Shown: positions 17,119 through 40,745, counted from the stretch's first letter. The stretch: 64,000 bases of DNA from Chlorobium sp. (GCA_005843815.1 SZYA01000026.1:3949-67948), one strand, 5' to 3'. Program-made: numbers and translations. Notes: generated by a model not told the origin, from the sequence alone.

Positions 17119-17192
17119 GGGCGATTAGCTCAGTTGGTTAGAGCGCTACATTGACACTGTAGAGGTCAGAAGTTCGAATCTTCTATCGCCCA
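17119..17192 (+). tRNA. tRNA-Val (anticodon GAC)
   Basis: Hand-folded cloverleaf: acceptor GGGCGAT/ATCGCCC, D-arm GCTC..GAGC, anticodon stem CTACA/TGTAG with loop TTGACAC, T-arm AGAAG-TTCGAAT-CTTCT, discriminator A; 74 nt, CCA not encoded. Confidence 0.9.
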
Positions 17193-17282
17193 CCCTTTCT
17201 TGACCTGTTACTCGCTGAATGTTTGCGGGTTCTGAGCTGTCCCGGTTAAACTTTTTGCTGAGTAGAAGATTTCAAGAATTTT

Positions 17283-17629: not shown

Positions 17630-17948
17630 TTTGCTGATTTTTTGGTAGAACAGGGCTCCATGATCACCACTCCTGCAACAGTCGGGAACCTTGGTGGTCA
17701 TGGTTTTCTGCAGATGGGTTCTGCCATACCGATAACTCCGCATACTATCAGCCCCCCCCGCATTTTTTGTTTCGCATGATCGGCACCAGCCTGATTAGCT
17801 TAATTCGATCAAATAGTCAATCCATCAACTCCGATAGTTTTGCTTTTGTGGCAGTGATTAGTCTATCAAGATTTTCACCTGATTTTGGTTGTCAAGGGTG
17901 ATGTTGATGAGAGCTGGCTGGCGTGATTTTTTTTAAATTTTTTATCGG

Positions 17949-18140: not shown

Positions 18141-21100
18141 ATGAATATTGATGCTGTTGTCGAATCCAATGGAGCAGCCTTGTCTGGCGCTGATCTTCTG
18201 AAGAACTTCTGCTCAATGGAGGAATTTGATACTACCGAAAACAGGGAGCTCCGGACGCTGGTTATTGCTGATACCGATATTGAGGATGCTGCTGTTTTAC
18301 TGGAGCAACTTGAGCCGGGGACTGAGCTTTGGCGGGTTGATTTACGGTCGGATTTTGCTGATACTCTTCATAATGCACTCTCAGGAGGATATGATAAACT
18401 TCATTTTGTTGGGCATGGTCAGCCCGGATCGATAACTCTTGGCGGCAAGGTGCTGGAGGCTGAAGATTTTACCGCATTGTCGGGTGCGCAGGTCGATGCC
18501 CCATCCATCCATTTCTGGTCGTGCATGACCGGCGCCGGGGCGAAAGGGCGGGCATTCGTTCATCATATAGCCGAGGCATTTGATACCGTTGTGACAGCTT
18601 TCGGTGGTCTGGTTGGTGCTGGCAACAAGGGTGGCAGTTGGATGCCTGATGTCTTTTCACGTGCAGATGCTTCTGTTGCGCCTCCTTTTGTGAATGCTTT
18701 GGCTTATCAGCACACACTGTTAGCTTCGGCGCTGAAACTGCTCTCAGTAGTTACTGCTACTGGTATAGATGTTCAGGTGAGGTTGGCAGCAGGTACTGTT
18801 ATTGACAAGGCGGATCTTGTTCTGAGTTATGATACTGCGAAGGCGAGCTATACGGGCGCGAAAGGCAATCCTGCCTTAACAGGTTGGAGCTGGGTGCCTA
18901 ATCTTGACTCCCCTGGTCATTTGCTTATAGGTGGTTCTAGCTTAACTTCAATAAACAACAGTACGTCTGAAGTTGTGCTGGCGCGAATCAGCTTTACGCT
19001 TCCTCAGGGAAGCACTGAATTTGGTGCATCATTGGCGAGTGGCACCACGCTTTTGGTCGGTAATTCACAAGTGTCATTGGGCACACTTCCGACACTGGAT
19101 ACCATCCTCATCTCATCGGTGCCTGTCTGGCAATCGTTTACACCGCCAAGTGATTTAACCTATACCGCCGGTTCGACAATTTCTCTTGATTTTCCTCTCT
19201 ATGCGACGGATCCGGATGGGGATGCCATAACCTACAAGGCTTCTGTGGGGCAAATGGTTGACAACATATTTTTTGGCGTAGCCAATGCTCAACAAATTTC
19301 TCTAACATTGTCGAACGGCCATTTGACAGGCAGTACAACTGTGCCTGCACAGGCTGCAGCGGGTAGCTATGTGATGCGCTTGCTTGCTGATGACAAACTC
19401 ACGGATACGAATAATGGAGCTGCTCTTGATGTGCCTTTTTCCGTGATCTCTACGGCGACCATCAATAATATCACCATTAACACCACCGGCAATGTCAGTG
19501 GAACTCCTCTTCCAAGCGAGAGCTACTATGCATTCCATTCAGCCACAGATGTTCTTGCCGCAATTGGAGATTACGGTTTCAGCCTTAATCTCAAGACTGA
19601 TACCGACACCAATCCCCTTACCTTCAATGCAAGCTGGAACTGGCTGAACTCTTCGGGAAATATCAGCCAAACCAGTGCTGGCGTGCTGACGTTTCAGGAT
19701 ACTGATACCTCTAAATCTGGCCCTGAGCTATGGAGTGTAACATTCAACAATGTTGACACTGGAGTGCTTCTTGCGGATGGTACTGATGCCGATACTCTTC
19801 CTGATGGTTTTGTGAGCAATGATGTCAGCTTTCCGCTGGTGTGGCAGGCAAAAGATGCAAACAATGTCATTGCCACCTTTACAGCTACGGGGAAGGACTC
19901 CAGCAACTCTGATGTTACCATCAATGGCGTGTTGAAAGACACCAACAGTGATGGTAAACCAGATACCATAGCCGGAACACAGGGCACCCAGACCTTTAAT
20001 CTTCCCTTCAGTTTCACGGATACCAACAATGATAGCATACCTGATCATTTCACCATAACAGAATCCCAGATACGATCAGGTCGTGTTCAGGTGGATGCAT
20101 CGGGTAATCCTGCGGGGCTCTATCTCAATAATTCGATAACCTTTGACCTTGGCACCACCGGAGCTGCGCTTGCTTCATTGGGCTCGATTGTGGTCAAGCT
20201 GGCGACGGCAAACGCGGGTATGAACGGGGCTAATGTTTCGGTCGCTTCACTGACGTTTGATGGCACGCATCTTACGGTTCCTCTTTCAGGAACTGATGCA
20301 GTTACCTCCCAACCCTATTATTTGTACCCAAACTCCGGTGCAGATATTTTTGTTAAGGTGCCTGCAGGAGTTGTGGTGGGGCAAACTGATATCGTCAAGG
20401 CGTGGCAGGTGGGCAACGTGGACAACAACAGCTACTCACTTTCACCGATGACGGTTGTGGGGAGTAGCGGCACAAGTGGCGCAGACTGGGTAACGGGTAC
20501 CGCTGTTAATGACAGCATTGAGGCTGGAGCGGGGAATGACATCATTCAATGGTCGGCTGGAAATGATACGGTAGATGCTGGCGACGGCTATGATAAAGTG
20601 TATTTGCAGCTTTCAACTCCTGCTACATCAAAAGAGCTTGATGCCGCAGGGGTGCTTCATATTAAAACAGTGGCAATATCAGGTACAGGTACCAGTACTG
20701 GTACTGGTACTGGTACTGGTACTGGTACTGGTACTTCGACCATGGTTGATGCCTACAGGATTACGAAAGAAGCGGCTGCTGATTCTTTTAAGATCCAGAA
20801 AATGGATACCGCTGGCACCTCTGTTGCGCAGACCATGATCCTGAAAAATGCAGAGCTTGTTGCTGCTGGTTCCCAGACATTTCAGCTCAAGATTGCCTCT
20901 GGTGGTGGTCAGTATGTCAGTGGTACCCCCTGGGATGATCAAATCAATCTTGATGCAGCATCTCTTGGAAATTTGGTGCAGGTTTTTGGTGATACCGGCA
21001 AGGATCTTCTTGTGGTTGATATGGGCGCAGGATACAACAAGTTTGAGATGGTCAAAAGTGGAACCTCCTATCTTTTGAAGGGTACGCTCATTTCAGGTGG

Positions 21101-24100
21101 TTCCCTTGTTGAGCTGGGCCATCTAATGCCCTTACAATATGGCAACGGTGCTACGATGACGGTGGGTACAGGGACAACCGCCAAATCTTTCGGGGTTTAC
21201 GATATTGAATCATTCCGCCTTGTCTCTGGCAGTGTGATTTTTGATGTTGATTCATCACAGTTTGCTGAGGTTTCGTTTTATGGAAACAGTTATCAGAACA
21301 ACATCTATGGCACATCCAATGCAGATACTATTGATGCCGATGCTCTGGCTTCTGCCAACAGTGCCACCACAAATAAGGACTGGATCTATGGCATTGGCGG
21401 AGCCGACAGCATCAAGGCTGGTACTGGTGATGACTACATTGATGGTGGCACTGGTAATGACACGATTGACGGTGGCGCTGGCAATGACACTGCGTACTTC
21501 CAGGGCTCCAAGTCTGATTATACAGTGACCAAGGGCACGGATGCGGGGGGGAAATACCTTGAGGTAACGGGCAAAACCGGTGAGGTTGACAAGCTGTACA
21601 ACATTGAAGTGCTCCAGTTCATGGATGGCAGGCAGGAGTTCTCGGTCACCTTTAATGCTGCCTATGACAGCAACAACTGGTCGAGCAACACTATCAACGG
21701 CACGGGTCTGGATGATGTGATTGATGCTGATGCCCTGGCAGCGGAAAATCCATATAAGGGGAGCAAATGGCTTACGATCAACTTTACTCCGGGGCAGACG
21801 GACTATGTGCTTGGAGCAAAGGATTTTGCCAATAATGGTACGGTTTCCTTTACAGCCACAGAACTTTCAAGTCTGACTGCTGCCAATCTTGAACTCAGGC
21901 ATAACGGCCAAGTAGTTTCAACGCCTCTCAGTGGTGTTACTGTAGCAGACATAACTAATGGCAGCTATATTTTGCACTGGACTGGCACCACAACTCCGCT
22001 ATCGTCAGTATTCACTGTTGATGTGGAAGCGGTTAACAGCCATAACGACAGGATTGAGGGCAACGAGGGGAATGACTCTATTATTGCTGGTGCCGGTGAT
22101 GACACTGTTCATGGTGGAGCAGGTAATGATTCTATAGATGGCGGTTCAGGCAAGGATACTGCATCGTATAATGGAAATACGTCAGATTACACGATTACCA
22201 ACGCTAATGGCGTGTTGACGGTCACGGACAACAACACGACCAATGGTGATGATGGCACAGATACTCTCCTGAATATTGAGCGCTTGCAGTTCCTGGATGG
22301 TGATCAGGTTCTTGCGGTGAGCTTTACAGCGGCAAACGACAGTGGAAGTTATGCGCAGAATAATATCACCGGCACGCTGCGTGATGACACCATTGATGCC
22401 GACGCTCTTGCTGCGGCTTATGTTGGAACTCTGGCGACGCACCGTGACTCAATTGATGCAGGAGCGGGCAACGACTTGATAGATGCAGGGCTCGGAGGAG
22501 ATCAGATTCGTGGTGGAGTGGGTAATGATACCATTGATGGTGGTGAGGATACCCTGGCAGACCGACTTCTGACAGTTAATTCCAACAACGGTTTCGGTTT
22601 TGAAAACCGGGCGATATACACCGGCCAGGCAAAGAAATACACGATTACCGAACACATTGGCGAAGCAGGTAACAGCGATCATGTTCCTGCAGGGCAGCGC
22701 TATTATATTGTTGAGGATACCCGGAGCGGCTTCCCGGATGGCACAGACATTGTGTACAATGTTGATACCTTGCAATTCAGCGACAAGGAGGTGCGTCTTT
22801 CTGCCAGCCTCTGGTTTAACCGCTTTTCGCAGGATACACTTGTTACTCCGACTGGATCACTGGTCGATAGCGCGAAAACCGTTACTGCTGCCGATTTTGC
22901 GCCCGATCAGCAGTTGTCACAAGTGACGTTCAGTCGTGAACAGGTAAATGGTACCTTGAGGTTGAATGGGGTTGATTTAGTTTCGCTTGTTGTCAGTGGT
23001 GCTGATATTGCCGCAGGGAAACTCACCTTCCAGCCCTCTTCTGGTCAAGATTTCAGCCTCCGTGCCAATGTTGAAGTGTATAACCTCAATGCTGATGGCA
23101 CAGCTTATGCTGATACCATTGGTTATGCCTTCGGCGCTACGGTGCCCACGGGAAGTTACGACTTCAGCGGTTCCGATCGTCTGAATGGTGGAGCAGGGAA
23201 CGACAAGCTTTACGGTGGATCAGGAGCTGACACTTTCAGAGGAGATGCAGGCAATGATACTATTGATGGTGGAACAGGTCGTTCCTTGCTGAGCAAGGCT
23301 ACCTGGGATCCCAATGGCTCCAATGGCTATGATGTTGCCGAGTTTACAGGCATTGCCAGCCGTTACTCTATCACGTTCACGAATGATTTGGGTGTCACTG
23401 TTGATGGCTTCGATCCGGCAGGATCGGTTATTGTTAAAGACAGCAAGCTTGACAGCAAGGGTGGTGATGGCACGGATACGTTGAGCGGTGTTGAAGTGCT
23501 TCGTTTCTCCGACGGTGAGAAAAATCTTTCTGTTCTGGAGTATGAGAATTTCTACTATGACTGGCTGACCCAGGCAAAAATTTCCACAGGGTATCGCTGG
23601 GAGGGCAGCGATTATGCTGATACCATCACGTCGACTTCTCCCCTGCGCGATGAAGTGCATGCCAAGGCCGGAAATGACACGATATCGACCGGAGGAGGCG
23701 GTGACTGGATAGATGGAGGTGAAGGAAATGACACTATTGATGGCGGAACCAATGGTACACTTGATCAGTGGGTCAACATAGCCGTCGACATAGCAAATTA
23801 TGATGCTCCAATGCGCCGTTTCGATATCACAAAGAATGGTGACGGAAGTATCCAGGTAACTGATCGTCTTGGGGCGGAATTTGGCGGGTTTGGAAGTGAC
23901 AAGCTGAGCAATATCGAGCAACTGCAGTTCAATGATGGTTCAATTGACCTGGCGGTACAGTTTAATAGCAACAATGGCGCTTTTGGTCAGAATAACATTA
24001 CTGGTACTCAGTTTAAAGATGTCGTTGATGCAGACTCTTTTGTTACCATTCAGGGAGGCAATCACAACGATTACATTGACAGCAAGGCTGGCGATGATGT

Positions 24101-27100
24101 GGTCTATGCCGGCCTTGGCGCTGACCGGATCAAGGATGGCACCGGTAACGACTTCTATGATGGTGGAGCCAACGGGACATCTGAGCAGACTTTGAATAAT
24201 CAGGATGTGGTTGAGTTTACAGGGGCACAGAAACGTTATTCTGTTGATGTGATTAAATATGCCGATCTTGATAGCACCGTAAAGGCCAATATCACAGAGA
24301 AGTACTCGGGTGCAGATATTCCTGCGACGATAGTTCGTGTGACCGACAAGATTCCCGATGTTAGCGGTGGTGACGGGGTCAACTACCTCATCAACATTGA
24401 GCGCATCCAGTTCCAGGATGGCGGTATTGATCTCGGCATTAATTTTAACCCTGCATCTTCAGGAGCATCATGGGATCGTAACAATATTCAGGGTGGTCTG
24501 CTCGATGACAGTATCAATGCCGATACGCTTGGGAGCAGCGCACCAGTTCACCGCGATTATATTGATGGCGGCGCCGGTAATGACACCTTGCTTGGTGGGG
24601 CCGAGGGTGATGAACTGAGGGGAGGTCTCGGCAATGATGTGCTGGATGGAGGAGAGAACGGTGCGGCAGACGAAAATGGTTACTTCGATCCGTGGCAGGA
24701 TCTTGATCGTGCCACCTTCAGCAATTCCATCAATCGTTACGATATACAGTTTTTCCGCACAGAGTCGGGTGGTGGTTACAACAATATGGGTGTTGCCTTA
24801 GCGAATGGTGGTTATGCCAAGTCCGATTATTACACTGACTCGGGCATTATTGTGGTACAGGATCTCTATGATGCGGCACATGGTGGTGAAGGTCGTGATG
24901 TTTTGAGTAATATTGAGGTCTTGCAGTTCAGCGATACCTGGGAGCAGCTTAAGGTGCAGTACCAAAGCTCTTCCTATGACCAGTATGGATATGTAGACAA
25001 GGGGGCTGGTAACTGGAGCTGGGAGATGACTGGAACAATCAATCGCCTTGATGGTTGGGGTACTCGTTTCGGGGATCTGATGGTCGGGACAACCAATGCT
25101 CAAAACAATCTCAATGGCAACGGTGGTAACGACAGTCTTGTTGGTGGTGCCCTTCGTGACGACCTGCATGGTGGTGCCGGTAACGACACCATTGATGGTG
25201 GTGGCAACCCGAGTCCTAATCCGACCACACCCTGGGATACCAGCGGTTATGATGTTGCCTGGTTTGATGCCGATCGCAGTGAATTTGAAATTACTCAGAA
25301 TGGTAACAGCTTTACCGTCAAGCATCTTATTCCGGAAAGTCTTGGAGGACAAGGTACTGATATTGTGCGAAATGTCGAACGTTTGCAGTTCCGTGATACT
25401 TCTGAGGATCTTGTCGTTTTGGTTACGCAAGGAGCAAGTCATAAGAATGGTGACGTTTGGGTAACTTATTCAAACTACGTTGGCACTAATTTTGCCGATA
25501 ATGTTCAGGATGCCGTCGCCGGAGGAGAGAGCGACTTCCAGATGAAGAACGGCAACGACACGGTTGTCGCGGGCACTGGCAATGACCACGTCAAGGCAGG
25601 TGGTGGGGATGATCTCATCTATCTTGATACAACAGATATCAATGCTTCTGGTGGTGGTGATGACCAGGCCAACCTTGGCACAGGCAATGACACCGTCTAT
25701 GGAGGCACAGGCTATGACAATGTCTACTACGACGACGCCGTCCAACGCTATGCGATAACTGTTCATGCCTCAAATGGTAACGCACAACTGGCAACCTTCT
25801 CTCTGGCTGGCCCTCCTTCTGGGGCAGGTGTTTATTCAGGAACCCTTAACTTTACGAATACAACCCTGGGCAGCAGCTACGACGATACAACGATGTATGT
25901 CAAGGTTGTCGACACCCTTGCTGAGCAGTATGGCGGTGAGGGGACGGATCAGTTGCATGGCATTGAGCAGATAACCTTTGAGGGGGGAATCCTCCATCTG
26001 CAAACTGGCACGATCAATGAAGTGACTTACCAGACAGGTGATTTTGCAGTAAAGGAGACAACAGTTGGTACAGATGGCACAAATGGCACCAGCGCAAATG
26101 ATACTATCTCGGGTACCGACGGTACTGACTGGCTGCAGGGCTGGGCGGGCAATGATTTGCTGAGCGGAGGCGCCGGTGATGACTCACTCAACGGTGGTCT
26201 TGGCAACGACACTCTGATCGGTGGGCTCGACAATACCGCTGACCGGAACAGCTACTGGAACGCTGGCGACACGGCACAATATGCCGGTGCCGTCCGTGAA
26301 CGGCTGCATATCAGCGGGAAGATGACTGACTCCAACGGTTCTGTCACTGGGACGTCAGGAGAGAGCTATTATATCGTGACAGATCTTGCTTCATTGAAAG
26401 ACAAAACATTAGCAGACGAATTAAAATACTTTTCCAGTAATGTCAATCAAAACGTGGGTTACGGGCAGGATGCCCTTGTCGGAATTGAGCGCATACAGAT
26501 TGGCGATTCACTACTGCAGCTTGCACCGGTAACCAATACATCTACCTGGACAAGCTCCTGGTGGGATTATACGACAGGGCAGAGCCATGAGTATCAGGTG
26601 TCGCGCACCTATATTACCGGCACCTTCCTGGACGATCTCCTGATGAGCACAACAAACGGGGGCGATGAGATTGACGGCAAGGGAGGTAACGACACCATTG
26701 ATGGAGGCAATGAAACTGCCGCTCTTGGCAACCTTTGGGAAATTCAGGATGTGGTGCGCTACACTGGATCTCGGGAACGTTATATCGTCAAAGGTGTGCT
26801 TGTTGATATTGCAGGGACAACCTATACGATTGTTGACCCCTCCAATGCCAAAGCAACCTCCGTTTTTGGTATTCAGATCCAGGATGTGCTGCCTGACAGC
26901 GCGGGCGGTACCGGCACTGACCTGCTGGTGAACATTGAGCGGGTTGAATTCAACGGTTCACAGCTCAGTATCAAGCCAATGGTCAATACATCTTTTGATG
27001 GCTCAGTCAATGTTCAGGGTACCGAATTTGACGATGTGCTGAATGGCAAGGAGGGCAATGACCAGATCAGTGGCAATGCAGGCAATGATACCCTGCTTGG

Positions 27101-31727: not shown

Positions 31728-31732
31728 CCACT

Positions 31733-31770
31733 CCCTGTTCACCCGCCATCATGGCGGGTGAACAGGGTTT
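31733..31770 (+). terminator. Strong hairpin (15-bp perfect stem CCCTGTTCACCCGCC / GGCGGGTGAACAGGG, loop ATCAT) followed by a short TTT, 6 nt after the giant ORF stop
   Basis: Stem complementarity was verified by hand. The U-tract is only 3 nt, so termination efficiency is uncertain. Confidence 0.55.
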
Positions 31771-31814
31771 ACTCCTGTCGGTATTCTAATAATTAACGGT
31801 AAGGTACTTTACAC

Positions 31815-34800
31815 ATGGCATACGAAACCGAACACAGCCTGAGTACAGGCGTATCGAATGGTACTGCGGCACAAGCCAATCTTCTCAGTGATGGAGTTCT
31901 CACCATTGGAGCATTGGGCAGTGCCAGCGATGTTGATTATTATAAGGTAGTCACCACCGGTCCTGCCCTGATCAACCTGAGTTTTGCGACAAGTATTACC
32001 TCCAGCTCCACCTACTGGAATATAGGGTTGCTTGATTCGGCCGCCCTCGATTATCTCGTCTCTCCGACTCGATCCTTGACCGGAACACCACAGATTTCTG
32101 GCGCAAGCCAGTCAGGCACCACGCTTAATGTCAAGGGTTTGTCGACGACCCTGCCTGCAGCAGGCAGCCGCTTTACCATTGCCACCTCAGGCGCTGATAC
32201 CACCATTTATACGGTGGTCAGCGCAACCGCAATAAGTTCAGGGACTTCAACATTCACGCTTGACAAGGCGGTATCCTCTCCTGCTGATGCAGCCTCTCTT
32301 GTTTTTGACCCGGTCAATACATCGGTTGGCGCATCAACAACCCTGAAGGCATTGGTGGGTGCGGCGAAAACCTACTATGTCAAGGTAGCAAAGGGAGATG
32401 TAGCATCAACCCAGGAGTACAGTGTAACAGCCACGGTAACCTCTACCGTGGAGAGTGGTTTTAATGATACCAAGGCTGCCGCTGCAACGAGCAATAACCA
32501 TCTGCTGAGTGGTGTGGCGATGACCGGTAACCTGTCGGGTGATACGGATAAAGATGTCTGGCTCTTCACCACAGCGGCAGCATCTGATTTTACTCTCGAT
32601 TTTGCCGCTGCCAGCGGCAGTGCGGCATCAGCCGACTGGAAAACGACGGTCACTGACTGGAATGGGCAGAGTATCCTGAACAGCAATGGGGCTGCGATCT
32701 CTCTCAGTGCAGGCACATCAGCTACGGCCTCCATCTCCCAGGCCTATAATCCCGCACCAAAGACTTATGTTGTTATCGTTGAAGCGGCGAAAACAGGAGC
32801 AAGCACCAGTAATTACACACTGAAGGTGAGCGGCACCGCTCTGGACCTGAATGATACGCCGGTTATGACGGTTGGATCGGTCAGCTCCTCGGCCAGCAAT
32901 ACGGTTATCGATACAGGGGTGATAAAGAGCATTCAGGCAGGCGCAGACTCAACACTGTTGCTCTCCAGCCTTTTTTCAGCCACTGACGCAGATACGTCGC
33001 AGACACTCAGCTATGTGCTAAGTCTTGTCAAGCCTGCCGGATCTGGAAGTGGCGGATACCTTAAGGTTGGTGATGTCGCTTATGGGTTTGGTACAGGGAT
33101 GACATCGCCGGCCAATGTTGCCTTAAGTGCCGCTCAGATGGCGACGGCAAAGTTTTATGCAGGCACAGCAACTGGCGACTTGACCCTTACCCTTCAGGCG
33201 CGCGACAGCTCGGGTGCCAGCGATGGTTCTGATTATGGTGCCTATATGCAGCAGACCCTGCGCGTGGTCGATGCCGGTTATGCCGTCAAAGTATCGGCCC
33301 ATACAACGACTACTCTTCAGGAAGGCGCCAGCAGCAGCACCGATACCCTGAGTATTACTCTTGGGAAAGCGCCGGCCGCAGGTGAAACCGTTACTCTCTA
33401 TCTTGAGCATGGTGGTGAAGCATCCAGCGCTTTCCAGTTGAGTTACAGCACTTCAGTTCTTGGCTTTACCAGTACGAACTATGCAACGCCCCAGACGGTG
33501 ACGGTTACTGCTCGCGAGGATGGCCTGAAAGAGAGCAGCCAGACCGGCAAGGTCAGCTTCAGGGTGGTGAGCAGTGTTACGAATTCGGCGTTCAATGATC
33601 TTCTTGTGGATACACTCACCTACACGTTGACTGATGCCTCGAACCATTCGCCGACCGGTTCGGTTACGGTCACCGGTACTGCAACCCAAGGGCAGACTTT
33701 GACAGCCGCAAATACTCTTGCGGATTCCGATGGTCTTGGCACCATCACCTACCTTTGGCAGCAGAGTAGTGACGATACCAACTGGAGCACCATCGCTGGC
33801 TCGGGGACAGGTTCAACCTATACTCTGGCCAATGCACAGGTGGAGAGGTATGTTCGGGTGCTGGCCAACTACACTGATGCCTTGTCAAATGCCGAATCCA
33901 TCGCCAGCGCGACTCTCTCCAGCAGCGGCTCTTCGGTAAAAATCGGCAATATCAATGACGCACCCACCCTGGCCAACGCCATTGCTGATCAAACAGCCGT
34001 GCGTGGCAACATCTACAATTTCACTGTTCCGGCCACTGCTTTCAGCGATATCGATCCGGCTAACAGCGGCGGCACCCTGAGCTACACGGCAACTCTTGAA
34101 GATGGGTCAGCGCTCCCATCCTGGCTGACGTTTGCTCCTGCTACGCGTACGTTTTCCAGTACCAATGTAACGGCAGCAGCCTATTCGGTTATCAGTGTGA
34201 AGGTGACGGCTACCGATAATGCTGCAACGCCACTTTCGGTGAGCGATATCTTCACGATAACAGCAGGCGATCCCGTCAAAGGTTCTCCCGTGCTGGCGAA
34301 AGCTCTGGTTGACCAGTCGGCGACCCAGGCAGTCTCTTTTTCTTATACGGCGGCGGCGGCCTCCTTTACCGATACGGCTCCTGATGGCACAACAGATACC
34401 AGTGGAGCCCTCACCTATACTGCCACTCTTGCTGATGGCTCAATCCTGCCGACATGGCTGAACTTCTCCAGCAGTAGCGGCCTTGTTTTTAGCGGAACTC
34501 CGGGGAATGCTGATGTTGGCACCCTGTCGGTCAAGGTGACGGCTTCGGATGGCACCTCTTCGGCAAGTGATATATTTGGCATTGTTGTGGCTAACGTCAA
34601 TGATCTGCCAACGGGATCGGTTGCACTTGCAGGTACTCCGATTCAGGGAAATACCTTGACGGCAAGCAATTCCCTTGCAGATATTGATGGCATGGGCACG
34701 GTGTTTTACCAGTGGCAGTCCTCTTCAAATGGAACGGACTGGAGCAGTATCAGTGGAGCCAACAGTTCAACGATCAACCTTGCCCAGGAGCAGGTGGGCA

Positions 34801-35675
34801 AGCTGGTTCGTGTGGTTGCCAGTTATACGGACGCAAGGGGAACGTTGGAAAGTTACTTGACTAATACAAGTGAGAGGAGCTCAGCGACGACATCAGTAGT
34901 GAACATCAACGATGCACCCACGGGTGAAGTGACTATTACCGGAACCACCAGAGTGGGTCAGACACTTACGGCTGACGACCATACGCTGGCGGATGCAGAC
35001 GTTCTTGGTACGATCCACTACCAGTGGCAGGCCGGGGGTGTGGATATCAGCGGAGCGACGAATAAAACTTATGGATTGACCGCTTCTGAGCTTGGCAAGG
35101 TGATAACGGTCAAGGAGAGCTACACTGATGGAGGCGGAGCATCAGAGAGTGTGACAAGTGGAGCTACAACAGCGGTTTCGGCATCATCCTATGGTATCAC
35201 GGTCAATACCAAATATTGGAATAGTGAGACACTGATCAAGGGTGTAGAGCTGAAAACAGGGGCTCAAACTGGTGATACAGGTTCAGTGGTGCTGAGTGGC
35301 CATGCCGCGGGTCAAACGACCCTTACCCCTGCATTGACAGCGGATAGTGCGGCCAAAGGCGCTGTCGATCTGCTTGATACCATCGCTATTCTCAAGAGTA
35401 TTGTAGGACTGACGACCCTGAATGGCTATCAGCAGGTTGCTGCCGATTTTGACAAGGCTAACGGGGTAGATTTGAATGACGCTATTGCCATTCTCAAACA
35501 TGTTGTCGGTCTTCCAGCCCCGACACCGGAGTGGGCGTTTGTGGACAAGAGCGTTCTGCAGCCTGATCCTGCCCTCGCCATATCGCTCAATCTGACTGCC
35601 GATACCACGGTTGACCTGGTGGGCATTCTGAGAGGCGATGTTGATGGAAGCTGGTCTACCGCATTGCATGTATAA
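31815..35675 (+). CDS. 1286-aa mosaic surface protein: two PPC-like regions, a Calx-beta-like region, three copies of an ~80-aa 'GQTLTA..LAD.DGLG..YQW..YTD' module, two dystroglycan-type cadherin-like (CADG/He_PIG) domains and a dockerin-like C-terminus. No RTX repeats and no signal peptide.
   Basis: 'SASDVDYYKV' and 'GDTDKDVWLF' fit the PPC pattern. 'NDAPTL..IADQTAVRGNIYNFTVPATAFSDID...LSYTATLEDGSALPSWLTFAPATRTFSST' and 'LTYTATLADGSILPTWLNFSSSSGLVFSGTPGNADVGTLSVKVTASDG' fit the CADG pattern. The N-terminus is 'MAYETEHSLSTG'. Confidence 0.85.
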   Translation: MAYETEHSLSTGVSNGTAAQANLLSDGVLTIGALGSASDVDYYKVVTTGPALINLSFATSITSSSTYWNIGLLDSAALDYLVSPTRSLTGTPQISGASQSGTTLNVKGLSTTLPAAGSRFTIATSGADTTIYTVVSATAISSGTSTFTLDKAVSSPADAASLVFDPVNTSVGASTTLKALVGAAKTYYVKVAKGDVASTQEYSVTATVTSTVESGFNDTKAAAATSNNHLLSGVAMTGNLSGDTDKDVWLFTTAAASDFTLDFAAASGSAASADWKTTVTDWNGQSILNSNGAAISLSAGTSATASISQAYNPAPKTYVVIVEAAKTGASTSNYTLKVSGTALDLNDTPVMTVGSVSSSASNTVIDTGVIKSIQAGADSTLLLSSLFSATDADTSQTLSYVLSLVKPAGSGSGGYLKVGDVAYGFGTGMTSPANVALSAAQMATAKFYAGTATGDLTLTLQARDSSGASDGSDYGAYMQQTLRVVDAGYAVKVSAHTTTTLQEGASSSTDTLSITLGKAPAAGETVTLYLEHGGEASSAFQLSYSTSVLGFTSTNYATPQTVTVTAREDGLKESSQTGKVSFRVVSSVTNSAFNDLLVDTLTYTLTDASNHSPTGSVTVTGTATQGQTLTAANTLADSDGLGTITYLWQQSSDDTNWSTIAGSGTGSTYTLANAQVERYVRVLANYTDALSNAESIASATLSSSGSSVKIGNINDAPTLANAIADQTAVRGNIYNFTVPATAFSDIDPANSGGTLSYTATLEDGSALPSWLTFAPATRTFSSTNVTAAAYSVISVKVTATDNAATPLSVSDIFTITAGDPVKGSPVLAKALVDQSATQAVSFSYTAAAASFTDTAPDGTTDTSGALTYTATLADGSILPTWLNFSSSSGLVFSGTPGNADVGTLSVKVTASDGTSSASDIFGIVVANVNDLPTGSVALAGTPIQGNTLTASNSLADIDGMGTVFYQWQSSSNGTDWSSISGANSSTINLAQEQVGKLVRVVASYTDARGTLESYLTNTSERSSATTSVVNINDAPTGEVTITGTTRVGQTLTADDHTLADADVLGTIHYQWQAGGVDISGATNKTYGLTASELGKVITVKESYTDGGGASESVTSGATTAVSASSYGITVNTKYWNSETLIKGVELKTGAQTGDTGSVVLSGHAAGQTTLTPALTADSAAKGAVDLLDTIAILKSIVGLTTLNGYQQVAADFDKANGVDLNDAIAILKHVVGLPAPTPEWAFVDKSVLQPDPALAISLNLTADTTVDLVGILRGDVDGSWSTALHV
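35339..35513 (+). other. Dockerin-like duplicated Ca-loop/helix segment (hypothetical assignment)
   Basis: 'ADSAAKGAVDLLDTIAILKSIVGL' and 'ADFDKANGVDLNDAIAILKHVVGL' are two ~24-aa repeats spaced ~34 aa apart. They resemble dockerin repeats (D.D..G.v...D...iLk..vG). A third partial loop, 'RGDVDGSW', lies at the extreme C-terminus. Confidence 0.45.
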
Positions 35676-35741
35676 GGTATTATAATGTATATTATTCTAT
35701 ATTGAAAAGCGCTGAAGCATAAAACCAAAAAGGAGTAATGG

Positions 35742-36191
35742 ATGGCTGATTTTATTACAATTGCAAATAAGACGTATACCTACACCGCCGCAACTGACAA
35801 GACCACAGTTCAGTTTGACCTTTACTTTGCTGCCGCACTGATTGGTGGCTCAAAGATCAGTGGTGCGGTGATTGATCTGGCCTATCAATACTCATCTGTC
35901 AGTGCAAGTCAGGTAACCAATCCGTCATTCAGTTATACTGATGATTTTGGAGCTCAAACCGCCAAAGTCTGGTCCGATCCTCCTACAGTTAACCTGAACG
36001 GTGCCTCATCGAATGGCAAGATTGCCTTGGTGGCCGATCCAAAACTTCTGGCACAGAATCCGATTATTGGGACGGCCGGGCAAGTTCTTACGGTTAAGTT
36101 AGTGGTTTCCGGAAATGTGACTGATTTTGCAGTGACGTTACAAACTGATGCAAACGGTGGTGATAATTATATCACAACATCAGATGCGGTG
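35742..36191 (+). other. Cohesin-like N-terminal region (hypothetical assignment)
   Basis: 'VQFDLYFAAALIGGSKISGAVIDLAYQYSSVSASQV....NGKIALVADP......GQVLTVKLVVSGNVTDFAVTLQ' has cohesin-style strand spacing. No HMM was run. Confidence 0.3.
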
Positions 36192-39100
36192 AAGCATGAT
36201 TTTGATGGTGGCTACGCTAATATCAATGCGCCCGTGCTGACTGTCGAGAATGCCACGGTATCTCTTCCGGAGAACACTCCTGCAGGCCCAATAAGCGGCG
36301 CTGCTGCACATGCGACCGACGCTGATGGTGGTACTCTCGCCTTCAGTCTGGTTAACCCTCCAACGAATGGCAGTAATCAGCCGATTTTTGCCATTGATTC
36401 CGTTACTGGCCAGATCAGCCTGACAAGTGTCGGCGCGGCATTGATTGATTTTGAAAATCCTGATCACCAGGCAATTCTTACGGTGAAGGTGAGCGACGGT
36501 CTTGCCGCTCACGACCAGACCAAAACCATCACATTGAATGTCACTAATGTGAACGACAACCCGCCTCTCTTTACCTCGGGCGCAACAGGCACTGTCATTG
36601 AAAACGCCCCATCGACTACCGTGATCTATACAGCGGCCACGACGGATGCTGATAACCTTGGAGCGCCAACCTATACGCTTGGCGGCACCGATGCAGCGCT
36701 GCTGAACATCAATGCGAGCACGGGAGCTGTAACACTTAAAAATTCTGCTGATTACGAGTCACCGCAAAAGAGTTATAGCTTCACCGTCACTGCAAATGAT
36801 GGAGCAAACTCAAAAGATCAGGCGGTTGTTGTTTCAGTCACCAATGCTAACGATCCAGCCACTGGTGCCGCTGTTATTAGCGGTCAACCGGCAGTTGGGG
36901 CAACATTGACAGCCGATATTACCACCCTGGCTGATCAGGATGGCCTCAACAATGTAACCTATCAATGGCAAGCAAATGGTGTAGATATCGCTGGTGCAAC
37001 GACCAGTACACTGGTTTTGGATGCAACACAAACCAACCTTCCCATAACAGTAAAGGTTACCTATACAGACAGCTTTGGAAATACTACCGTTACGAGTGCT
37101 GAGAAAGTGTGGAATCAAGCGCCGGTTATCACGGTGGACAACGCAACAGTCAGCCTCGCAGAAAACGCGGCGGCCGGTGAAATTGGTGCACAAGCTACTG
37201 CAACTGATGCAGATAGCGATTCTGTTACCTTGAGCCTTGTTTCACCTGTTAATGGCGCTAACGCGCCACTGTTTGCAATTGATGCAGCGACAGGGAAGAT
37301 CAGCCTGACTGCTGCCGGCGCTGCAGCTCTTGATTACGAGTCAAGCAACAAGAGCTATACCTTGACCGTTACCGCAAGTGATGCTCATCATACTGGCGCT
37401 TCAGCAACAACAAAAACGGTTACCGTAAACATCACGGATGTTAACGAAGCGCCAACAGCCGTTGCGTTGAACAATGCGATTACAAGCATAGCAGAAAATA
37501 CAAGCACGGCATCTCATGTTAAAGTTGCCGATATTGCCGTTACTGATGACGCGCCTGGAACAAATGTAGTCACCCTTTCAGGGGCTGATGCCAACAGCTT
37601 TGAGGTTGTTGGTACAGCACTGTATCTGAAAGCAGGTGAAACATTGAACTATGAAGCAAAGAGCAGCTACGCCGTAACAGTTAATGTTGCTGATAGTACG
37701 GTTACGGGAAGCTCTGCCGTTACCAACAATTATACGCTCACAGTAACGGATGTCAACGAAGCACCGACAGCAGTTGCGTTACATAATGCGACCACAAGCA
37801 TCGTTGAGAATACCAGTACCACGACATCCATTAAGGTTGCCGATATCGCTGTTACTGATGATGCCATTGGAACAAATACAGTTACCCTTTCAGGTGCCGA
37901 TGCTAATAGTTTTGAGGTTGTTGGTACAGCACTGTATCTGAAAGCAGGTGAGACGTTGAACTATGAAGCAAAGAGTAGCTACGCCGTAACGGTTACTGTT
38001 GCTGACAGTACTGTTTCGGGTAGTGCAGCAGTTACAGGCAATTATACACTTGCGGTAACGAACGTCAACGATGCGCCAACAGGCAGTGTCACTATCGAGG
38101 GCACAGCAACGCAAGGCCAGACACTAACGGCCAAAACAAGCACACTTGCAGACGAAGATGGACTTGGGGCAATAACACTTCAGTGGAAAGCTGATGGCGT
38201 GATTATATCGGGTGCCACAGGGAGTACCCTGCTTTTGGGCGGCGGGCAGAAAGATAAGGTCATTACTGTGGAAGCCAGTTACACCGATGGCCTTGGAAAT
38301 CTGGAACATGCAAGCAGCACAGGTACTGCAGCAGTGGTTGGCACACAAAGTGGTATTGTCCAGGATGGTTATCTCTCGAAAGCGCTTGTCTGGGTTGACA
38401 GCACCGCTAACGGCATACGTGATTGGACGGATGCAAATGGCAATGGCACCTGGGATAGTGGAGAGGGTGAATCATGGACAATTACTGACAGTACCGGACA
38501 ATTTACCGGCCTTGTTGGTTCAGGCACTATTCGTATTACAGCCAATCCGGCAAATCCATCGGCAACAATTGATATTTCCACAGGCAAGCCATTTACCGGA
38601 AACTATTCCGCACCCACCGGTTCAACCGTTGTCAATCCACTGACCACGCTTGTTGTTGCAGCCCTGGCGACGAATAACAATGATGTTGCAGCGGCGAATA
38701 TGGCAGTCAAGACAGCACTGGGTCTTGATTCTTCTGTGGACTTAAAGACCTATGATGCGCTTGCCGAAGCAAACAAGACGGGAGCCAGCAGTGCGAATTT
38801 GGCAAAGGCCATCAAGGTGCAGAGTGCAGCGACGCAGGTTTCCAACATCATAAGTATTGCCGAAAATGTAGCAACGGGGGCAGGAGCTACAAGTGTAACG
38901 GGGGTTGCCGCCAGTGTTGCCACTGCATTGATGACAGCCGCAGGAACCGGTACAGTTAATCTTGCCAACGCTACTGTTATTGCCAATACCATTACTACTG
39001 CGGCCACCAATGCTGGAGGTAATACAACAGGTTTGACAACGGTTATCACCTCAGTTGCAGACTCGTCAGCAGCGGTGAACAGCAATATTGGAGCTGTATC

Positions 39101-40697
39101 GAGCGCCGCTGCAACCACAGCGAGTTCGGGCGGAACGGTCAATATTGCTGATAGCATGAAACAGGTGGTCGCGGCGCAGATTGTTGCTCAGGATACATTA
39201 GCGAGCCAGGCCAAAACTGCTGCAGCAAATAATTCTTCAACTGGCATCACGGTGACGAGTGCAACTGTTACCAATGATGTAAACACAGCAAAGACGCAAG
39301 TCCAGACAATATTCGCGAATCATGCCCCGGCAGGCGACGTGACCATGGCGGGTACAGCGACACAGGGCCACACACTGACCGCTGGAAATACCCTTGCCGA
39401 TATTGACGGACTTGGCACTATCAGCTACAAGTGGCAAGTGTCGCAAGATGGCACAATATGGAGCGACATCACCGGCGCCACAAGCAACTCGCTGGCTCTC
39501 GGTGAAGCACAGGTTGGCCGTCAGGTGCGGATTATGGCAAGCTATACCGATGGTGCCGGCAAGCTCGAAAGCGTGAACAGCAATGCAACCTCTGTTGCGA
39601 GCCAGAGCTCCCCGACAGGCAGTGTAAAGATCACTGGCACAGCTACCACCGGTTTTCAATTGACTGCCAGCAATACCCTTGCCGATAGTGATGGACTTGG
39701 TACCATCAGCTATCAATGGTATTCGGGAAGCACGGCAATCATTGGAGCTGCGGGCACGACCCTGATTGTCAGCAATGCGCAGGAGGGCCAGACAATTTCG
39801 GTCAAAGCGAGTTATACTGATGGCCATGGAACTACCGAAAGTGTGAGCAGTGACGGTACTCCTTATGGTGCAGGTTTGAGCGTTACATCCGTTACAAGTG
39901 CCAGCGATTTAAACACTACGCTGGCTCCATACTTTGCCGCGTTTACCAATAAGGCCGATGTTCAAAGCAGAATTGCCACTTACTATGCGAATCCTGTGGT
40001 GGTTCAGCACAGAGACTTTTCTGCGAGTACCGCAGGCACATTCGATGTGAACTCTTCCGGTCGTGAAGCCTTCGCAATTGATTTGCCAACAGATGCCACT
40101 CTGAAAACTCTTACGTTGAACAATGTCGAGTTTGCCATTATCACCGGCGATAATCTTCGCATCATCGGTGGTGCTGGCAATAACATTGTCTTTGCAGGCG
40201 CTGGCAGCCAGAATATTTTGCTTGGTGTTGGTAATGATGAGCTGCATGGCGGTGATGGTAATGATACTATTGCCTCTACCACTGGTGATGATTACCTTTA
40301 TGGTGATGGCGGTAATGACAGTGTCAGTGGCGGCGCTGACAATGATCATCTCTATGGTGGTGATGGTGATGATACCCTTGATGGCGGCGATGGTAATGAC
40401 TGGCTGGTTGGTGGCGCGGGTAATGACCTGATCAATGGCGGCGCTGGTGATGATACGGCGGAGTTCAGCGGCACTCGTGCCCAATACACGATAGGTGCCT
40501 ATAATGCGGCGACACTAAGCTATGCTATAGCAGGTCCGGACGGTACAGATACAATCACCAGCATTGAGCATTTGAAGTTTGCAGATCAAACCATTGCAGA
40601 CCCCTATGCCACATTTAGTAGCCCTGTCACTCCTGAAAGCAACTCAATTTTGATCGGGGTTGGGGCGATTGGTCTTCTGGCGTGGGTGTTTTTATAG
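35742..40697 (+). CDS. 1651-aa cadherin-repeat / RTX protein. Order: cohesin-like N-region, about 6 cadherin-type repeats, four ~80-aa 'GQTLTA..YQW' modules, Ala/Thr-rich helical region, RTX block, one 'GTD..IE.L.F.D' module, C-terminal hydrophobic tail
   Basis: AAGGAG SD. Cadherin-like repeat boundaries are 'VTNVNDNPPLFT', 'ITDVNEAPTAVAL' and 'VTNVNDAPTG'. RTX block: 'GGDGNDTIASTTGDDYLYGDGGNDSVSGGADNDHLYGGDGDDTLDGGDGNDWLVGGAGNDLINGGAGDD'. The N-terminus 'MADFITIANK' is not a signal peptide. Confidence 0.88.
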   Translation: MADFITIANKTYTYTAATDKTTVQFDLYFAAALIGGSKISGAVIDLAYQYSSVSASQVTNPSFSYTDDFGAQTAKVWSDPPTVNLNGASSNGKIALVADPKLLAQNPIIGTAGQVLTVKLVVSGNVTDFAVTLQTDANGGDNYITTSDAVKHDFDGGYANINAPVLTVENATVSLPENTPAGPISGAAAHATDADGGTLAFSLVNPPTNGSNQPIFAIDSVTGQISLTSVGAALIDFENPDHQAILTVKVSDGLAAHDQTKTITLNVTNVNDNPPLFTSGATGTVIENAPSTTVIYTAATTDADNLGAPTYTLGGTDAALLNINASTGAVTLKNSADYESPQKSYSFTVTANDGANSKDQAVVVSVTNANDPATGAAVISGQPAVGATLTADITTLADQDGLNNVTYQWQANGVDIAGATTSTLVLDATQTNLPITVKVTYTDSFGNTTVTSAEKVWNQAPVITVDNATVSLAENAAAGEIGAQATATDADSDSVTLSLVSPVNGANAPLFAIDAATGKISLTAAGAAALDYESSNKSYTLTVTASDAHHTGASATTKTVTVNITDVNEAPTAVALNNAITSIAENTSTASHVKVADIAVTDDAPGTNVVTLSGADANSFEVVGTALYLKAGETLNYEAKSSYAVTVNVADSTVTGSSAVTNNYTLTVTDVNEAPTAVALHNATTSIVENTSTTTSIKVADIAVTDDAIGTNTVTLSGADANSFEVVGTALYLKAGETLNYEAKSSYAVTVTVADSTVSGSAAVTGNYTLAVTNVNDAPTGSVTIEGTATQGQTLTAKTSTLADEDGLGAITLQWKADGVIISGATGSTLLLGGGQKDKVITVEASYTDGLGNLEHASSTGTAAVVGTQSGIVQDGYLSKALVWVDSTANGIRDWTDANGNGTWDSGEGESWTITDSTGQFTGLVGSGTIRITANPANPSATIDISTGKPFTGNYSAPTGSTVVNPLTTLVVAALATNNNDVAAANMAVKTALGLDSSVDLKTYDALAEANKTGASSANLAKAIKVQSAATQVSNIISIAENVATGAGATSVTGVAASVATALMTAAGTGTVNLANATVIANTITTAATNAGGNTTGLTTVITSVADSSAAVNSNIGAVSSAAATTASSGGTVNIADSMKQVVAAQIVAQDTLASQAKTAAANNSSTGITVTSATVTNDVNTAKTQVQTIFANHAPAGDVTMAGTATQGHTLTAGNTLADIDGLGTISYKWQVSQDGTIWSDITGATSNSLALGEAQVGRQVRIMASYTDGAGKLESVNSNATSVASQSSPTGSVKITGTATTGFQLTASNTLADSDGLGTISYQWYSGSTAIIGAAGTTLIVSNAQEGQTISVKASYTDGHGTTESVSSDGTPYGAGLSVTSVTSASDLNTTLAPYFAAFTNKADVQSRIATYYANPVVVQHRDFSASTAGTFDVNSSGREAFAIDLPTDATLKTLTLNNVEFAIITGDNLRIIGGAGNNIVFAGAGSQNILLGVGNDELHGGDGNDTIASTTGDDYLYGDGGNDSVSGGADNDHLYGGDGDDTLDGGDGNDWLVGGAGNDLINGGAGDDTAEFSGTRAQYTIGAYNAATLSYAIAGPDGTDTITSIEHLKFADQTIADPYATFSSPVTPESNSILIGVGAIGLLAWVFL
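37434..38057 (+). repeat. Two tandem 312-bp (104-aa) near-identical cadherin-type repeat units
   Basis: Unit starts at 37434 and 37746, with the next boundary at 38058 (period exactly 312). Long identical DNA runs include 'tttgaggttgttggtacagcactgtatctgaaagcaggtga'. The protein units differ at roughly 15 of 104 positions. Confidence 0.9.
40167..40466 (+). other. RTX nonapeptide block (about 11 GGxGxD-type repeats) of the 1651-aa protein
   Basis: Direct reading of the translation from 'GGAGNNIVFAGAGSQNILLGVGNDELHGGDGNDT...' to 'GGAGDDTAEF'. Confidence 0.85.
40644..40694 (+). other. C-terminal hydrophobic tail 'SILIGVGAIGLLAWVFL-COOH', paralogous to the tail at 670..717
   Basis: Aligned from the C-terminus against 'VLLGIGGLAFLAWALL', the tail is identical at 6 of 16 positions and conservative hydrophobic at the rest. 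Consensus: (V/I)L(L/I)G(I/V)G(G/A)(L/I)(A/G)(F/L)LAW(A/V)(L/F)L. No basic residues follow. Confidence 0.6.
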
Positions 40698-40712: not shown

Positions 40713-40745
40713 CGGGCTGATATTATAAAGTATCAGCCCGGTTTT
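40713..40745 (+). terminator. Rho-independent terminator-like hairpin (CGGGCTGATA / TATCAGCCCG, 8-nt loop) followed by GTTTT
   Basis: The 10-bp perfect stem was verified by hand. It lies between the convergent 1651-aa ORF and cimA. Confidence 0.65.

Follow-up and report, generated by a model that had tools for sequence, protein, structure and literature searches.

The stretch of DNA analysed here, hereafter the window, comprises 64,000 nucleotides of a Chlorobium sp. genome (GCA_005843815.1, SZYA01000026.1:3949-67948) and carries three consecutive giant genes, which we call A, B and C (Table 1). We find that B and C very likely form a functional pair rather than being unrelated neighbours, as indicated by the adjacency of a dockerin-ending gene and a cohesin-headed gene in seven of seven independent loci, by fold evidence, and by the same architecture having been characterised in Chlorobium chlorochromatii. 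Judged by architecture and gene order, B-C appears to be a member of the Cag_2038/Cag_2037-type pair recently described in that species (bioRxiv 10.64898/2026.03.19.712371). What is new here is the hypervariable slot in which the pair resides, the strict adjacency of the two genes, the exchange of heads and dockerin ends between proteins, the embedding of the dockerin in a beta-sandwich, and the family of C-terminal tails to which that of C belongs.

Conserved pairing within mosaic loci

In each of the seven loci (the window, L090, L091/L092, L093/L094, L095, L096 and L097, the L numbers designating related loci), a gene ending in a dockerin module lies immediately upstream of a cohesin-headed gene, and the upstream proteins range from 820 to 2689 amino acids (aa). 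When aligned across the seven loci (alignment A3), the spacers between the two genes measure 66-77 bp and show 79% column identity. A terminator scan found no terminator-like site between B and C, and the two genes are probably co-transcribed. Between loci, identity reaches 69-96% for the dockerin modules and 65-94% for the cohesin-like modules, and mostly 32-62% for the C-terminal 200 aa of C-type proteins.

Orthologous A-B-C trios are found in L095 and L096. In these loci, the C-terminal 1100 aa of A are 79-83% identical to their counterparts, and residues 1-1035 of B are 83-84% identical to the B-like proteins. L090 is organised differently: a single 2689-aa protein combines the first ~1044 aa of A (74-76% identical) with a B-type dockerin end, so that some 13.65 kb of the window (21265-34917) have no collinear counterpart there. 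This segment holds the RTX-NIE array described below, the C-terminus of A, the A-B gap and the N-terminal ~1030 aa of B, with mosaic junctions at both ends.

Two C-type genes are split, in L096 (10001-16312, giving 1535 and 543 aa) and in L097 (8080-13161, giving 782 and 897 aa), which may have arisen by pseudogenisation or phase variation, or by misassembly of repeats.

A predicted sandwich-embedded dockerin at the end of B

Dockerins are characterised by a duplicated segment of about 22 residues, each copy consisting of an EF-hand-like Ca loop and the helix that comes after it. Both the repeat pattern and the predicted fold indicate that B ends in such a dockerin, inserted into a CnaB/transthyretin-like beta-sandwich. 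For the 168 C-terminal residues of B, we found 137 homologues, all unannotated, from Chlorobium, Rhodocyclales and metagenomes, several of which carry the module after RTX and NIE units. Their alignment (A1) displays two 'DAIxxLKxxVGL' helices, a nearly invariant terminal 'GDVDGSW' and a second Ca-loop ('DFDxxxGxVxLxD') with the canonical spacing of 12 residues. The family profile matches the cellulosomal dockerins 4UYP_B and 4UYQ_B (E=0.003-0.004). In the AlphaFold2 (AF2) model of the module, which has a predicted local distance difference test score (pLDDT) of 93.2 and a predicted template-modelling score (pTM) of 0.86, the helices of the insert span roughly residues 1178-1230 of B. Foldseek aligns this insert with 1OHZ_B (target-normalised TM-score, TMt, 0.74; probability 0.96), with 8X39_A (root-mean-square deviation, rmsd, 0.9 A over 49 columns; 39% identity) and with 4UYQ_B (rmsd 1.5 A).

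Dockerin modules of this kind also occur away from the slot. At least one further protein, P0005 (68% identical to the end of B), is encoded in the same metagenome-assembled genome (MAG) and in a metagenome, at an unrelated locus (L088 1-364, L089); in GCA_037132885.1 (JBAXPG010000090.1), its neighbours are a gene for a PIN toxin and an ABC (ATP-binding cassette) importer of the sulfate/molybdate type, and the contig starts inside the P0005 gene. In L085 and L086 (Logan ERR9698313 and ERR9698321), RTX giants of 2071 to >3900 aa and a 242-aa protein all have dockerin-type ends, and no cohesin-headed gene was found near this cluster.

The cohesin-like head and hydrophobic tail of C

Cohesins are nine-stranded jelly-roll beta-sandwiches of about 140-150 aa. 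In C, the predicted beta-sandwich starts as early as residue 3, too close to the N-terminus for a signal peptide to precede it, and fold comparisons lend moderate support to its being cohesin-like. Among the better-superposing Foldseek matches, the top TM-scores and probabilities belong to cohesins, namely 2W1N (query-normalised TM-score, TMq, 0.52; probability 0.99), 2JH2_C (TMt 0.53; probability 1.00) and 2O4E (0.47), and the type II cohesins 4U3S_A and 2BM3 score 0.43 and 0.41, respectively. The profile of the module matched no cohesin among PDB sequences.

Residues 1-157 of C correspond to a mobile module, which we found in 51 cluster representatives and in three contexts. In the first, it stands at residue 3 of C-like proteins. 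In the third, seen in 12 of the 51 proteins, it lies 60 to ~1100 residues (most often 60-150) upstream of a dockerin-type C-terminus. The second context (P0128-P0157) is that of giant Ig (immunoglobulin)-rich proteins, in which the module follows 'GDKIDLSALLG' and precedes by ~90-250 residues a C-terminus of the form '...DFxGDVTxxLTPAxLTFI'; most full-length members have a hydrophobic stretch in their N-terminal ~250 residues.

Towards its C-terminus, C carries an RTX beta-roll, the PDB sequence matches of which include CyaA (1e-41), lipases, a LapA-type adhesin and the R-modules of AlgE. The latter, from Azotobacter vinelandii, match the beta-roll of C (2AGM 1e-7, 2ML1 2e-6), but the match is confined to the RTX repeats, with no similarity to the catalytic A-module. 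In this sequence-only comparison with the PDB, residues 1361-1651 matched no A-module, and residues 1361-1480 had no match at all. An alginate lyase or epimerase in C was therefore rejected at the sequence level, the AlgE matches being limited to RTX R-modules.

The tail of C ends in a hydrophobic segment (residues ~1636-1651). Among 23 distinct tails of this type, borne by proteins with cohesin-like, DUF4347 or 'MATY..TGTxGND' heads, the last 16 positions contain no acidic residue and there is no terminal basic cluster. With its 'ADPY' motif, Gly/Ser-rich spacer and terminal hydrophobic helix, the tail resembles the signals of the PEP-CTERM/exosortase and GlyGly-CTERM/rhombosortase systems, which require an N-terminal signal peptide. 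Here, however, there is neither a terminal Arg/Lys cluster nor a signal peptide, and no NCBIfam sorting-signal model matched the tail at E<=10, so that both kinds of signal were rejected. The tail may be an anchor, or else a sorting or secretion signal.

Comparison with characterised systems

In Chl. chlorochromatii, the epibiont of 'Chlorochromatium aggregatum', Cag_2037 (= Cag_1919) carries a type II cohesin at its N-terminus, nine bacterial Ig (BIg) folds, an alginate epimerase/lyase-like region followed by RTX repeats, and a C-terminal transmembrane helix, and displays weak alginate lyase activity in vitro (bioRxiv 10.64898/2026.03.19.712371). Cag_2038, upstream of and co-transcribed with Cag_2037 (bicistronic), comprises 18 BIg folds and ends in a dockerin; binding between the two proteins is supported by AlphaFold3 (AF3) modelling, the pair is exported and immunogold-localised, with Cag_2037 at the envelope of the partner bacterium, and the candidate type I secretion system (T1SS) of the species is unlinked to the pair (bioRxiv 10.64898/2026.03.19.712371). 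The pair was presented as unique to the consortium epibiont, the comparison being limited to type strains (bioRxiv 10.64898/2026.03.19.712371; Kuzyk et al.).

The pair in the window is likewise found in a green sulfur bacterium. Its upstream protein is an Ig-repeat stalk with a C-terminal dockerin module, and its downstream protein starts with a cohesin-like module, followed by Ig-type repeats, the RTX part and a hydrophobic helix at the C-terminus. Linkage of the two genes is also tight, with a short spacer, a Shine-Dalgarno (SD) site and no terminator-like site, and T1SS genes are not adjacent. By contrast, C has a stalk of cadherin and GQT Ig units, with no alginate epimerase/lyase-like region detected, a third giant (A, with DUF4347 and 19 RTX units) precedes the pair, and the host is an uncultured lake MAG. 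Chl. chlorochromatii is not named among the homologues listed for the C module and for C-type proteins. An earlier note on this DNA had pointed to the huge haemagglutinin-like open reading frames (ORFs) of Chl. chlorochromatii as a parallel; that comparison was misplaced, as the real parallel is the smaller Cag_1919/Cag_1920-type pair (Cag_2037/2038).

Clostridial cellulosomal pairs (1OHZ, 4UYP/4UYQ, 2BM3, 4U3S) share with B-C a C-terminal dockerin with duplicated Ca-loop/helix segments and a matching fold, a beta-sandwich partner of ~150 aa, and the presence of both module types in some proteins, as in scaffoldins. They differ in that the Pfam models are not reached here, the dockerin sits inside a CnaB/transthyretin-like sandwich with an invariant 'GDVDGSW' end, there are no glycoside hydrolases or carbohydrate-binding modules, and the host is a Gram-negative phototroph. 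Cellulosomal components are Sec-exported, whereas no Sec signals are found here.

Large adhesins such as LapA of Pseudomonas and MpIBP of Marinomonas are similar to the proteins of the window in their great size, acidity and paucity of Cys, in their tandem Ig/cadherin-type extenders, in the absence of a signal peptide and in a C-terminal RTX beta-roll (9CSE, 'Large adhesion protein', 3e-12). In the window, the heads are instead DUF4347 or cohesin-like, and in C a hydrophobic tail follows the RTX repeats. General Pfam and NCBIfam scans, with no dedicated search, suggested neither a LapA-type N-terminal retention module nor adjacent LapD/LapG.

Gene A and the sharing of modules

The head of A is a DUF4347 domain, in which an HG...C pair is invariant across an alignment of 12 diverse heads, Cys128 being one of the two cysteines of A. 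As this His-Gly...Cys arrangement resembles a cysteine-peptidase-type dyad, the head could be catalytic or self-processing. The best PDB sequence matches to the family profile of the next module (residues 189-330) are the cohesin chains 5NRK_A and 5NRM_A (E=0.04), and this module may be a cohesin-type beta-sandwich. Pfam Cohesin matched neither residues 171-340 of A (E<=10) nor five other proteins from the family of A-type modules, and a word-index search retrieved no homologues of residues 165-350. A cohesin common to A and C was rejected, since BLASTP, hhalign and profile-profile comparison revealed no relation between the post-DUF4347 module and the head of C.

Most of A consists of RTX-NIE units, spaced 131-334 aa apart. 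As their pairwise identity is just 20-57%, the array appears to be old and diverged, and a recent amplification was rejected. No PDB sequence relatives were found for DUF4347, the NIE unit or the C-terminus of A.

Directly after the stop codon of A lies a strong hairpin, which may be a partial terminator or an mRNA-stabilising element. It was missed by the terminator scan because of its short T-run; L095 has a degraded version of it and L096 none. A dispersed element of the repetitive extragenic palindromic (REP) kind was rejected, as the hairpin occurs only once in the window. The case for a single A-B-C operon is weakened by this -34 kcal/mol structure, although the hairpin itself is not kept in L095/L096. 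What ties A to B-C is only its co-location with them, the two other trios and the mosaic exchange of its head.

Module types were initially thought to be shared by all three proteins. We confirm sharing between A and C and between B and C, but there is no three-way sharing, and A and B have nothing detectable in common. RTX repeats with the 'GTDxLxNIE' (NIE) unit occur in A (19 units) and C (one unit), not in B; the ~80-aa 'GQTLTA..YQW..YTD' (GQT) Ig unit occurs in B (three units) and C (four units), not in A. Similarly, Pfam assigns DUF4347 and 17 HemolysinCabind stretches to A, two He_PIG domains to B, and four Cadherin and two HemolysinCabind domains to C. Of the domains that the earlier note had suggested searching for, DUF4347, HemolysinCabind, Cadherin and He_PIG were recovered, but PPC, Calx-beta, Cohesin and Dockerin_1 were not. 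As neither Cohesin nor Dockerin_1 was matched, fold and profile evidence is needed for these two modules.

Signatures of export

The three proteins start at the first possible start codon following an upstream stop. Within their first 60 residues, the maximal Kyte-Doolittle hydropathy over 15 residues (KD15) is 1.3-1.5, and none of them thus has a signal-peptide h-region. Two statements of the earlier note hold in this respect: A, B and C have no signal peptide, as they lack a hydrophobic core and as the N-termini it quoted are correct and the same in orthologues, and none of the T1SS components (ABC transporter, HlyD-type membrane fusion protein, TolC) is encoded by the main ORFs of the 64-kb window.

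Over a combined 7465 residues, there are no cysteines in B or C and two in A, and all three have an acidic composition with much Gly, Thr and Ser. RTX repeats are found in A (17 HemolysinCabind stretches, E=3.5e-84, and 28 core motifs) and in C (two stretches, E=1.9e-16, and six core motifs). The extreme C-termini differ, being of RTX type in A, a dockerin module in B and a hydrophobic tail in C. The C-terminus of A has a weak NCBIfam match (9e-7, far below cut-off) to the rhizobial T1SS glycanase EglC. No Pfam or NCBIfam match to the C-terminal domain of type IX secretion substrates (Por_Secre_tail) was found on A, B or C, from which a signal peptide is also absent. These sequence features support the view that the three proteins carry signatures of Ca-binding extracellular proteins without signal peptide, and they are probably secreted by a T1SS.

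A hypervariable slot between tRNA-Val and cimA

The clpX-tRNA-Val...cimA interval is a conserved position in freshwater Chlorobium, the giant surface-protein content of which is hypervariable. On its left side, the order gltB-gltD-clpX-tRNA-Val is kept in five relatives (L004-L008), and the content downstream is different in each (Table 1). These relatives come from a genome scan with ClpX, which is too conserved to have yielded more than five Chlorobiaceae loci, the other 75 matches being from other phyla. On the right side, a tail-ending giant gene adjoins cimA in L090, L093, L094, L096, L097 and L099. Hence, the description of the three genes as an accessory block is right insofar as the content of the interval differs between relatives, but the block is one filling of a hypervariable slot rather than a one-off insertion.

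In L099 (1-9816), the slot contains Big_5/DUF5122 beta-propeller giants and a 1281-aa protein with Peptidase_M10_C, GH113 and Big_5.

A tRNA-linked integrative island was rejected for the window, which has no integrase, att repeat or GC anomaly at this place: neither the ORF listing nor Pfam revealed an integrase between tRNA-Val and cimA, the 3' end of tRNA-Val has no second copy in the window (with <=3 mismatches allowed), and the GC content of the block is similar to that of its flanks.

Proposed mechanism and alternative explanations

We lean, with modest confidence, towards the following overall picture. The core of the system would be a two-gene cassette residing in the slot, consisting of an Ig-rich stalk with a dockerin end followed by a cohesin-headed protein with cadherin, Ig, RTX and tail parts. 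A, B and C would leave the cell without Sec, C-terminus first, through a T1SS encoded elsewhere in the genome, and would fold outside the cell upon binding Ca2+. The dockerin of B would then physically bind the N-terminal cohesin of C in a Ca-dependent manner, thereby joining two stalks into one long surface-associated filament, and the distal RTX/tail end of this filament would touch another surface, be it another cell, a partner organism or a matrix. As a third RTX giant of the T1SS type, A would either belong to the same surface structure or be made alongside it, and its head can apparently be swapped with dockerin-bearing genes by recombination in relatives. The system would have an adhesive or matrix role. 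The earlier note had proposed a multi-component system rather than three unrelated adhesins: this proposal is partly supported, in that the B-C pair agrees with it, but A has no module in common with B.

Several observations weigh against this picture. With regard to the dockerin, the first Ca-loop is degenerate, the Foldseek E-values are weak (~0.4-0.6, as can be explained by a small domain embedded in a larger model), and Pfam Dockerin_1 (PF00404) matches neither the whole of B at E<=0.01 nor its C-terminal 157 aa at E<=10. As for the head of C, Foldseek yields E >=0.01 and cohesin TM-scores of only ~0.45-0.52, hence the moderate support stated above, and Pfam Cohesin (PF00963) has no match in residues 1-160 at E<=10. 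Dockerin and cohesin modules do not co-diverge significantly in a mirror-tree comparison (r=0.39, Mantel p=0.16). The likeness to the Cag pair is one of architecture and gene order, drawn from the published description and not from sequences. No T1SS genes were found beside the ~10 related loci examined or in the window, and the export route is least certain for B, in which neither Pfam nor a motif count detects RTX repeats. Finally, A has no dockerin, a marginal cohesin match (E=0.04) and a hairpin after its stop codon, and may therefore act separately.

According to a first alternative, which we regard as fairly unlikely, the slot is prone to recombination and houses independent adhesins, the modules of which bind other ligands (glycans, lipopolysaccharide or partner cells) and not each other. 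This would be in line with the unrelated Big_5/DUF5122 giants that occupy the slot in L004 and L099, with the absence of a common module in A and B, with the many dockerin-module proteins that lack a cohesin-headed neighbour, those of L085 and L086 among them, with the further dockerin-module protein encoded elsewhere in the same MAG, and with the non-significant co-divergence. It is less easily reconciled with the strict adjacency maintained, at 66-77 bp, across otherwise mosaic genes, with the conservation of both modules well above that of the rest of the proteins, and with the modelling of the equivalent pair as binding partners (bioRxiv 10.64898/2026.03.19.712371).

The module of B might also serve mainly as an export signal (T1SS C-terminal targeting) or as a Ca-dependent envelope anchor, cohesin binding being secondary or absent. 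The module is always located at the extreme C-terminus, which is the place of T1SS signals, it directly follows RTX and NIE units in many homologues (P0086, P0117, P0118 and the L085/L086 giants), its terminal 'GDVDGSW' is nearly invariant, and B has no other candidate export signal. However, a predicted compact fold (pLDDT 93) is unlike the short disordered signals of classical T1SS substrates, the match to the dockerin fold is specific, and the conserved pairing with cohesin-headed genes would be left unexplained. We consider this explanation unlikely; export or anchoring and cohesin binding are not mutually exclusive roles.

A role in consortium symbiosis, in which the MAG would be that of an epibiont delivering C to its partner and degrading the partner's alginate capsule, seems to us quite improbable. 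The architecture and gene order are those of the characterised Cag_2038/Cag_2037, Cag_2037 reaches the partner envelope and has weak alginate lyase activity, and the source of the MAG is a stratified lake, which is a habitat of consortia. Yet C matches AlgE through RTX R-modules only, with no epimerase/lyase A-module detected, its stalk consists of cadherin and GQT Ig units instead of the BIg folds described for Cag_2037, and C-type genes occur in many lake Chlorobium populations. Lastly, a decaying or non-expressed remnant in a recombination hotspot, to which the dockerin-gene remnant upstream of A and the split C-like genes of L096 and L097 might point, is scarcely credible given that the three ORFs are uninterrupted over 22.5 kb, that conservation between loci extends to N-termini, SD sites and modules, and that the equivalent pair of Chl. 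chlorochromatii is transcribed and translated.

Going beyond the dockerin-cohesin filament of B and C, we tentatively suggest, as a speculation more doubtful than the mechanism itself, that this single hypervariable locus provides freshwater Chlorobium with a combinatorial surface-assembly toolkit, in which dockerin-cohesin snaps would yield strain-specific filaments. Its heads may be DUF4347, cohesin-like or 'MATY..TGTxGND' modules, its stalks cadherin, GQT Ig or Big_5 repeats, and its ends either sandwich-embedded dockerins or Gly-rich hydrophobic tails. If this were true, the 'ADPY...GLLAWxxF-COOH' tail would represent a sorting or anchoring signal not described before, used by T1SS proteins without signal peptide, and Cag_2037/2038 would be one case of a widespread system of cell-cell or cell-matrix recognition that diversifies by module shuffling.

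As the preprint was limited to type strains, the many MAG homologues found here extend the known distribution of the pair. The same architecture occurs, in many mosaic versions, at a fixed slot in uncultured lake Chlorobium, which raises two possibilities: green sulfur bacteria may use it generally as a device for surface assembly, or interactions of the consortium type may be more widespread than thought. Our results define a candidate binding pair (residues 1119-1286 of B and 1-157 of C), natural swap variants in L090 and L093, and a conserved tail family. With modules thus delimited, binding specificity, export route and function become directly testable.

Other features of the locus

The three same-strand giant ORFs (4528, 1286 and 1651 aa) previously noticed amid housekeeping genes are confirmed by our ORF listing with identical coordinates; their 7465 codons occupy 35% of the window. 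Table 1 gives their positions together with those of the other features.

Table 1. Features of the window and content of the slot in related loci (coordinates are those of the sequence named in the second column)
Feature	Sequence	Coordinates	Strand	Evidence or remarks
tRNA-Val(GAC)	window	17119..17194	+	ARAGORN, Rfam; conserved left flank together with clpX, kept in L004-L008
86-aa ORF, function unassigned	window	17369..17629	+	no Pfam match; orthologue in L004
Decayed 3' end of a former dockerin-module gene	window	17822..17923	+	'...LILVVKGDVDESWLA*', with an in-frame stop
Gene A, 4528 aa	window	18141..31727	+	DUF4347 head, 19 RTX + NIE units, RTX-type C-terminus
DUF4347 domain, A aa 40-168	window	18258..18644	+	Pfam E=1.5e-17
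Conserved module after DUF4347, A aa ~189-330	window	18705..19130	+	family alignment A4
Segment without collinear counterpart in two-gene L090, 13.65 kb	window	21265..34917	+	blastn, blastp; GQT Ig units matched as repeats only
19 RTX beta-roll + 'YxV...GTDxLxNIExLxFxD' units, A aa 1120-4391	window	21498..31313	+	iterated hidden Markov model (HMM)
Perfect 15-bp-stem hairpin directly after A stop codon	window	31733..31767	+	RNA fold, -34.1 kcal/mol, z=-6.55
Gene B, 1286 aa (TLU55670.1)	window	31815..35675	+	Ig-rich, 2 He_PIG, 3 GQT units, C-terminal dockerin-bearing module (predicted)
B C-terminal module, aa 1119-1286	window	35169..35672	+	predicted CnaB/transthyretin-like beta-sandwich with inserted dockerin, ends '...GDVDGSW'
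B-C spacer, 66 bp	window	35676..35741	+	conserved; invariant AAGGAG Shine-Dalgarno
Gene C, 1651 aa (TLU55671.1)	window	35742..40697	+	cohesin-like head, cadherin + GQT Ig repeats, RTX, one NIE unit, hydrophobic tail
Cohesin-like beta-sandwich, C aa 1-157	window	35742..36212	+	AF2 model, pLDDT 90.5, all-beta
RTX beta-roll, C aa ~1473-1576, and one NIE unit, aa 1575-1619	window	40158..40598	+	Pfam, NCBIfam, HMM
C tail: 'ADPY', spacer, Gly-rich hydrophobic 'ILIGVGAIGLLAWVFL'	window	40599..40694	+	KD15 2.5
Terminator-like hairpin between convergent C and cimA	window	40713..40740	+	12-bp stem then GTTTTCG
Big_5/DUF5122 beta-propeller giant after tRNA-Val	L004	13813-18684
Content after tRNA-Val	L005			contig ends just past tRNA; no content visible
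Integrative and conjugative element (ICE) after tRNA-Val	L006	11552-20474		integrase, relaxase, type IV secretion system coupling protein (T4CP); uses this tRNA
Hypoth_Ymh-type gene after tRNA-Val	L007	11722-13621
TIR-domain/E2-like genes and pyruvate phosphate dikinase (PPDK)-radical SAM fusion after tRNA-Val	L008	12615-19681

The left side of the block is formed by gltB, gltD, clpX and tRNA-Val(GAC), and the right side, convergent to C, by cimA (leuA-like), leuD, leuC, leuB, ilvC, ilvN, ilvB and ilvD. The hairpin between C and cimA is the sole terminator-like site that the terminator scan detected around the block. PscD, a component of the P840 reaction centre, is encoded in the window, which identifies the host as a green sulfur bacterium. 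B and C have been deposited as hypothetical proteins of a Chlorobium sp. MAG (Table 1).

Between tRNA-Val and A, the 86-aa ORF belongs to the conserved flank, outside the variable block, since L004 has an 83%-identical orthologue (11740-11985) directly after tRNA-Val. The decayed dockerin end that follows matches a 170-aa dockerin-ending ORF of L093 (tblastn E=1e-5), and each of the two lies ~210 bp upstream of the DUF4347 gene at its own locus.

The ClpX sequence of the window is present in identical form in the MAG GCA_037132885.1 and in a JGI lake metagenome (3300021070). In the former, the corresponding contig (L001, JBAXPG010000031.1) breaks at residue 1131 of A, ~90 residues past the junction at residue ~1044, and this break inside A may reflect structural variants co-existing in the lake population.

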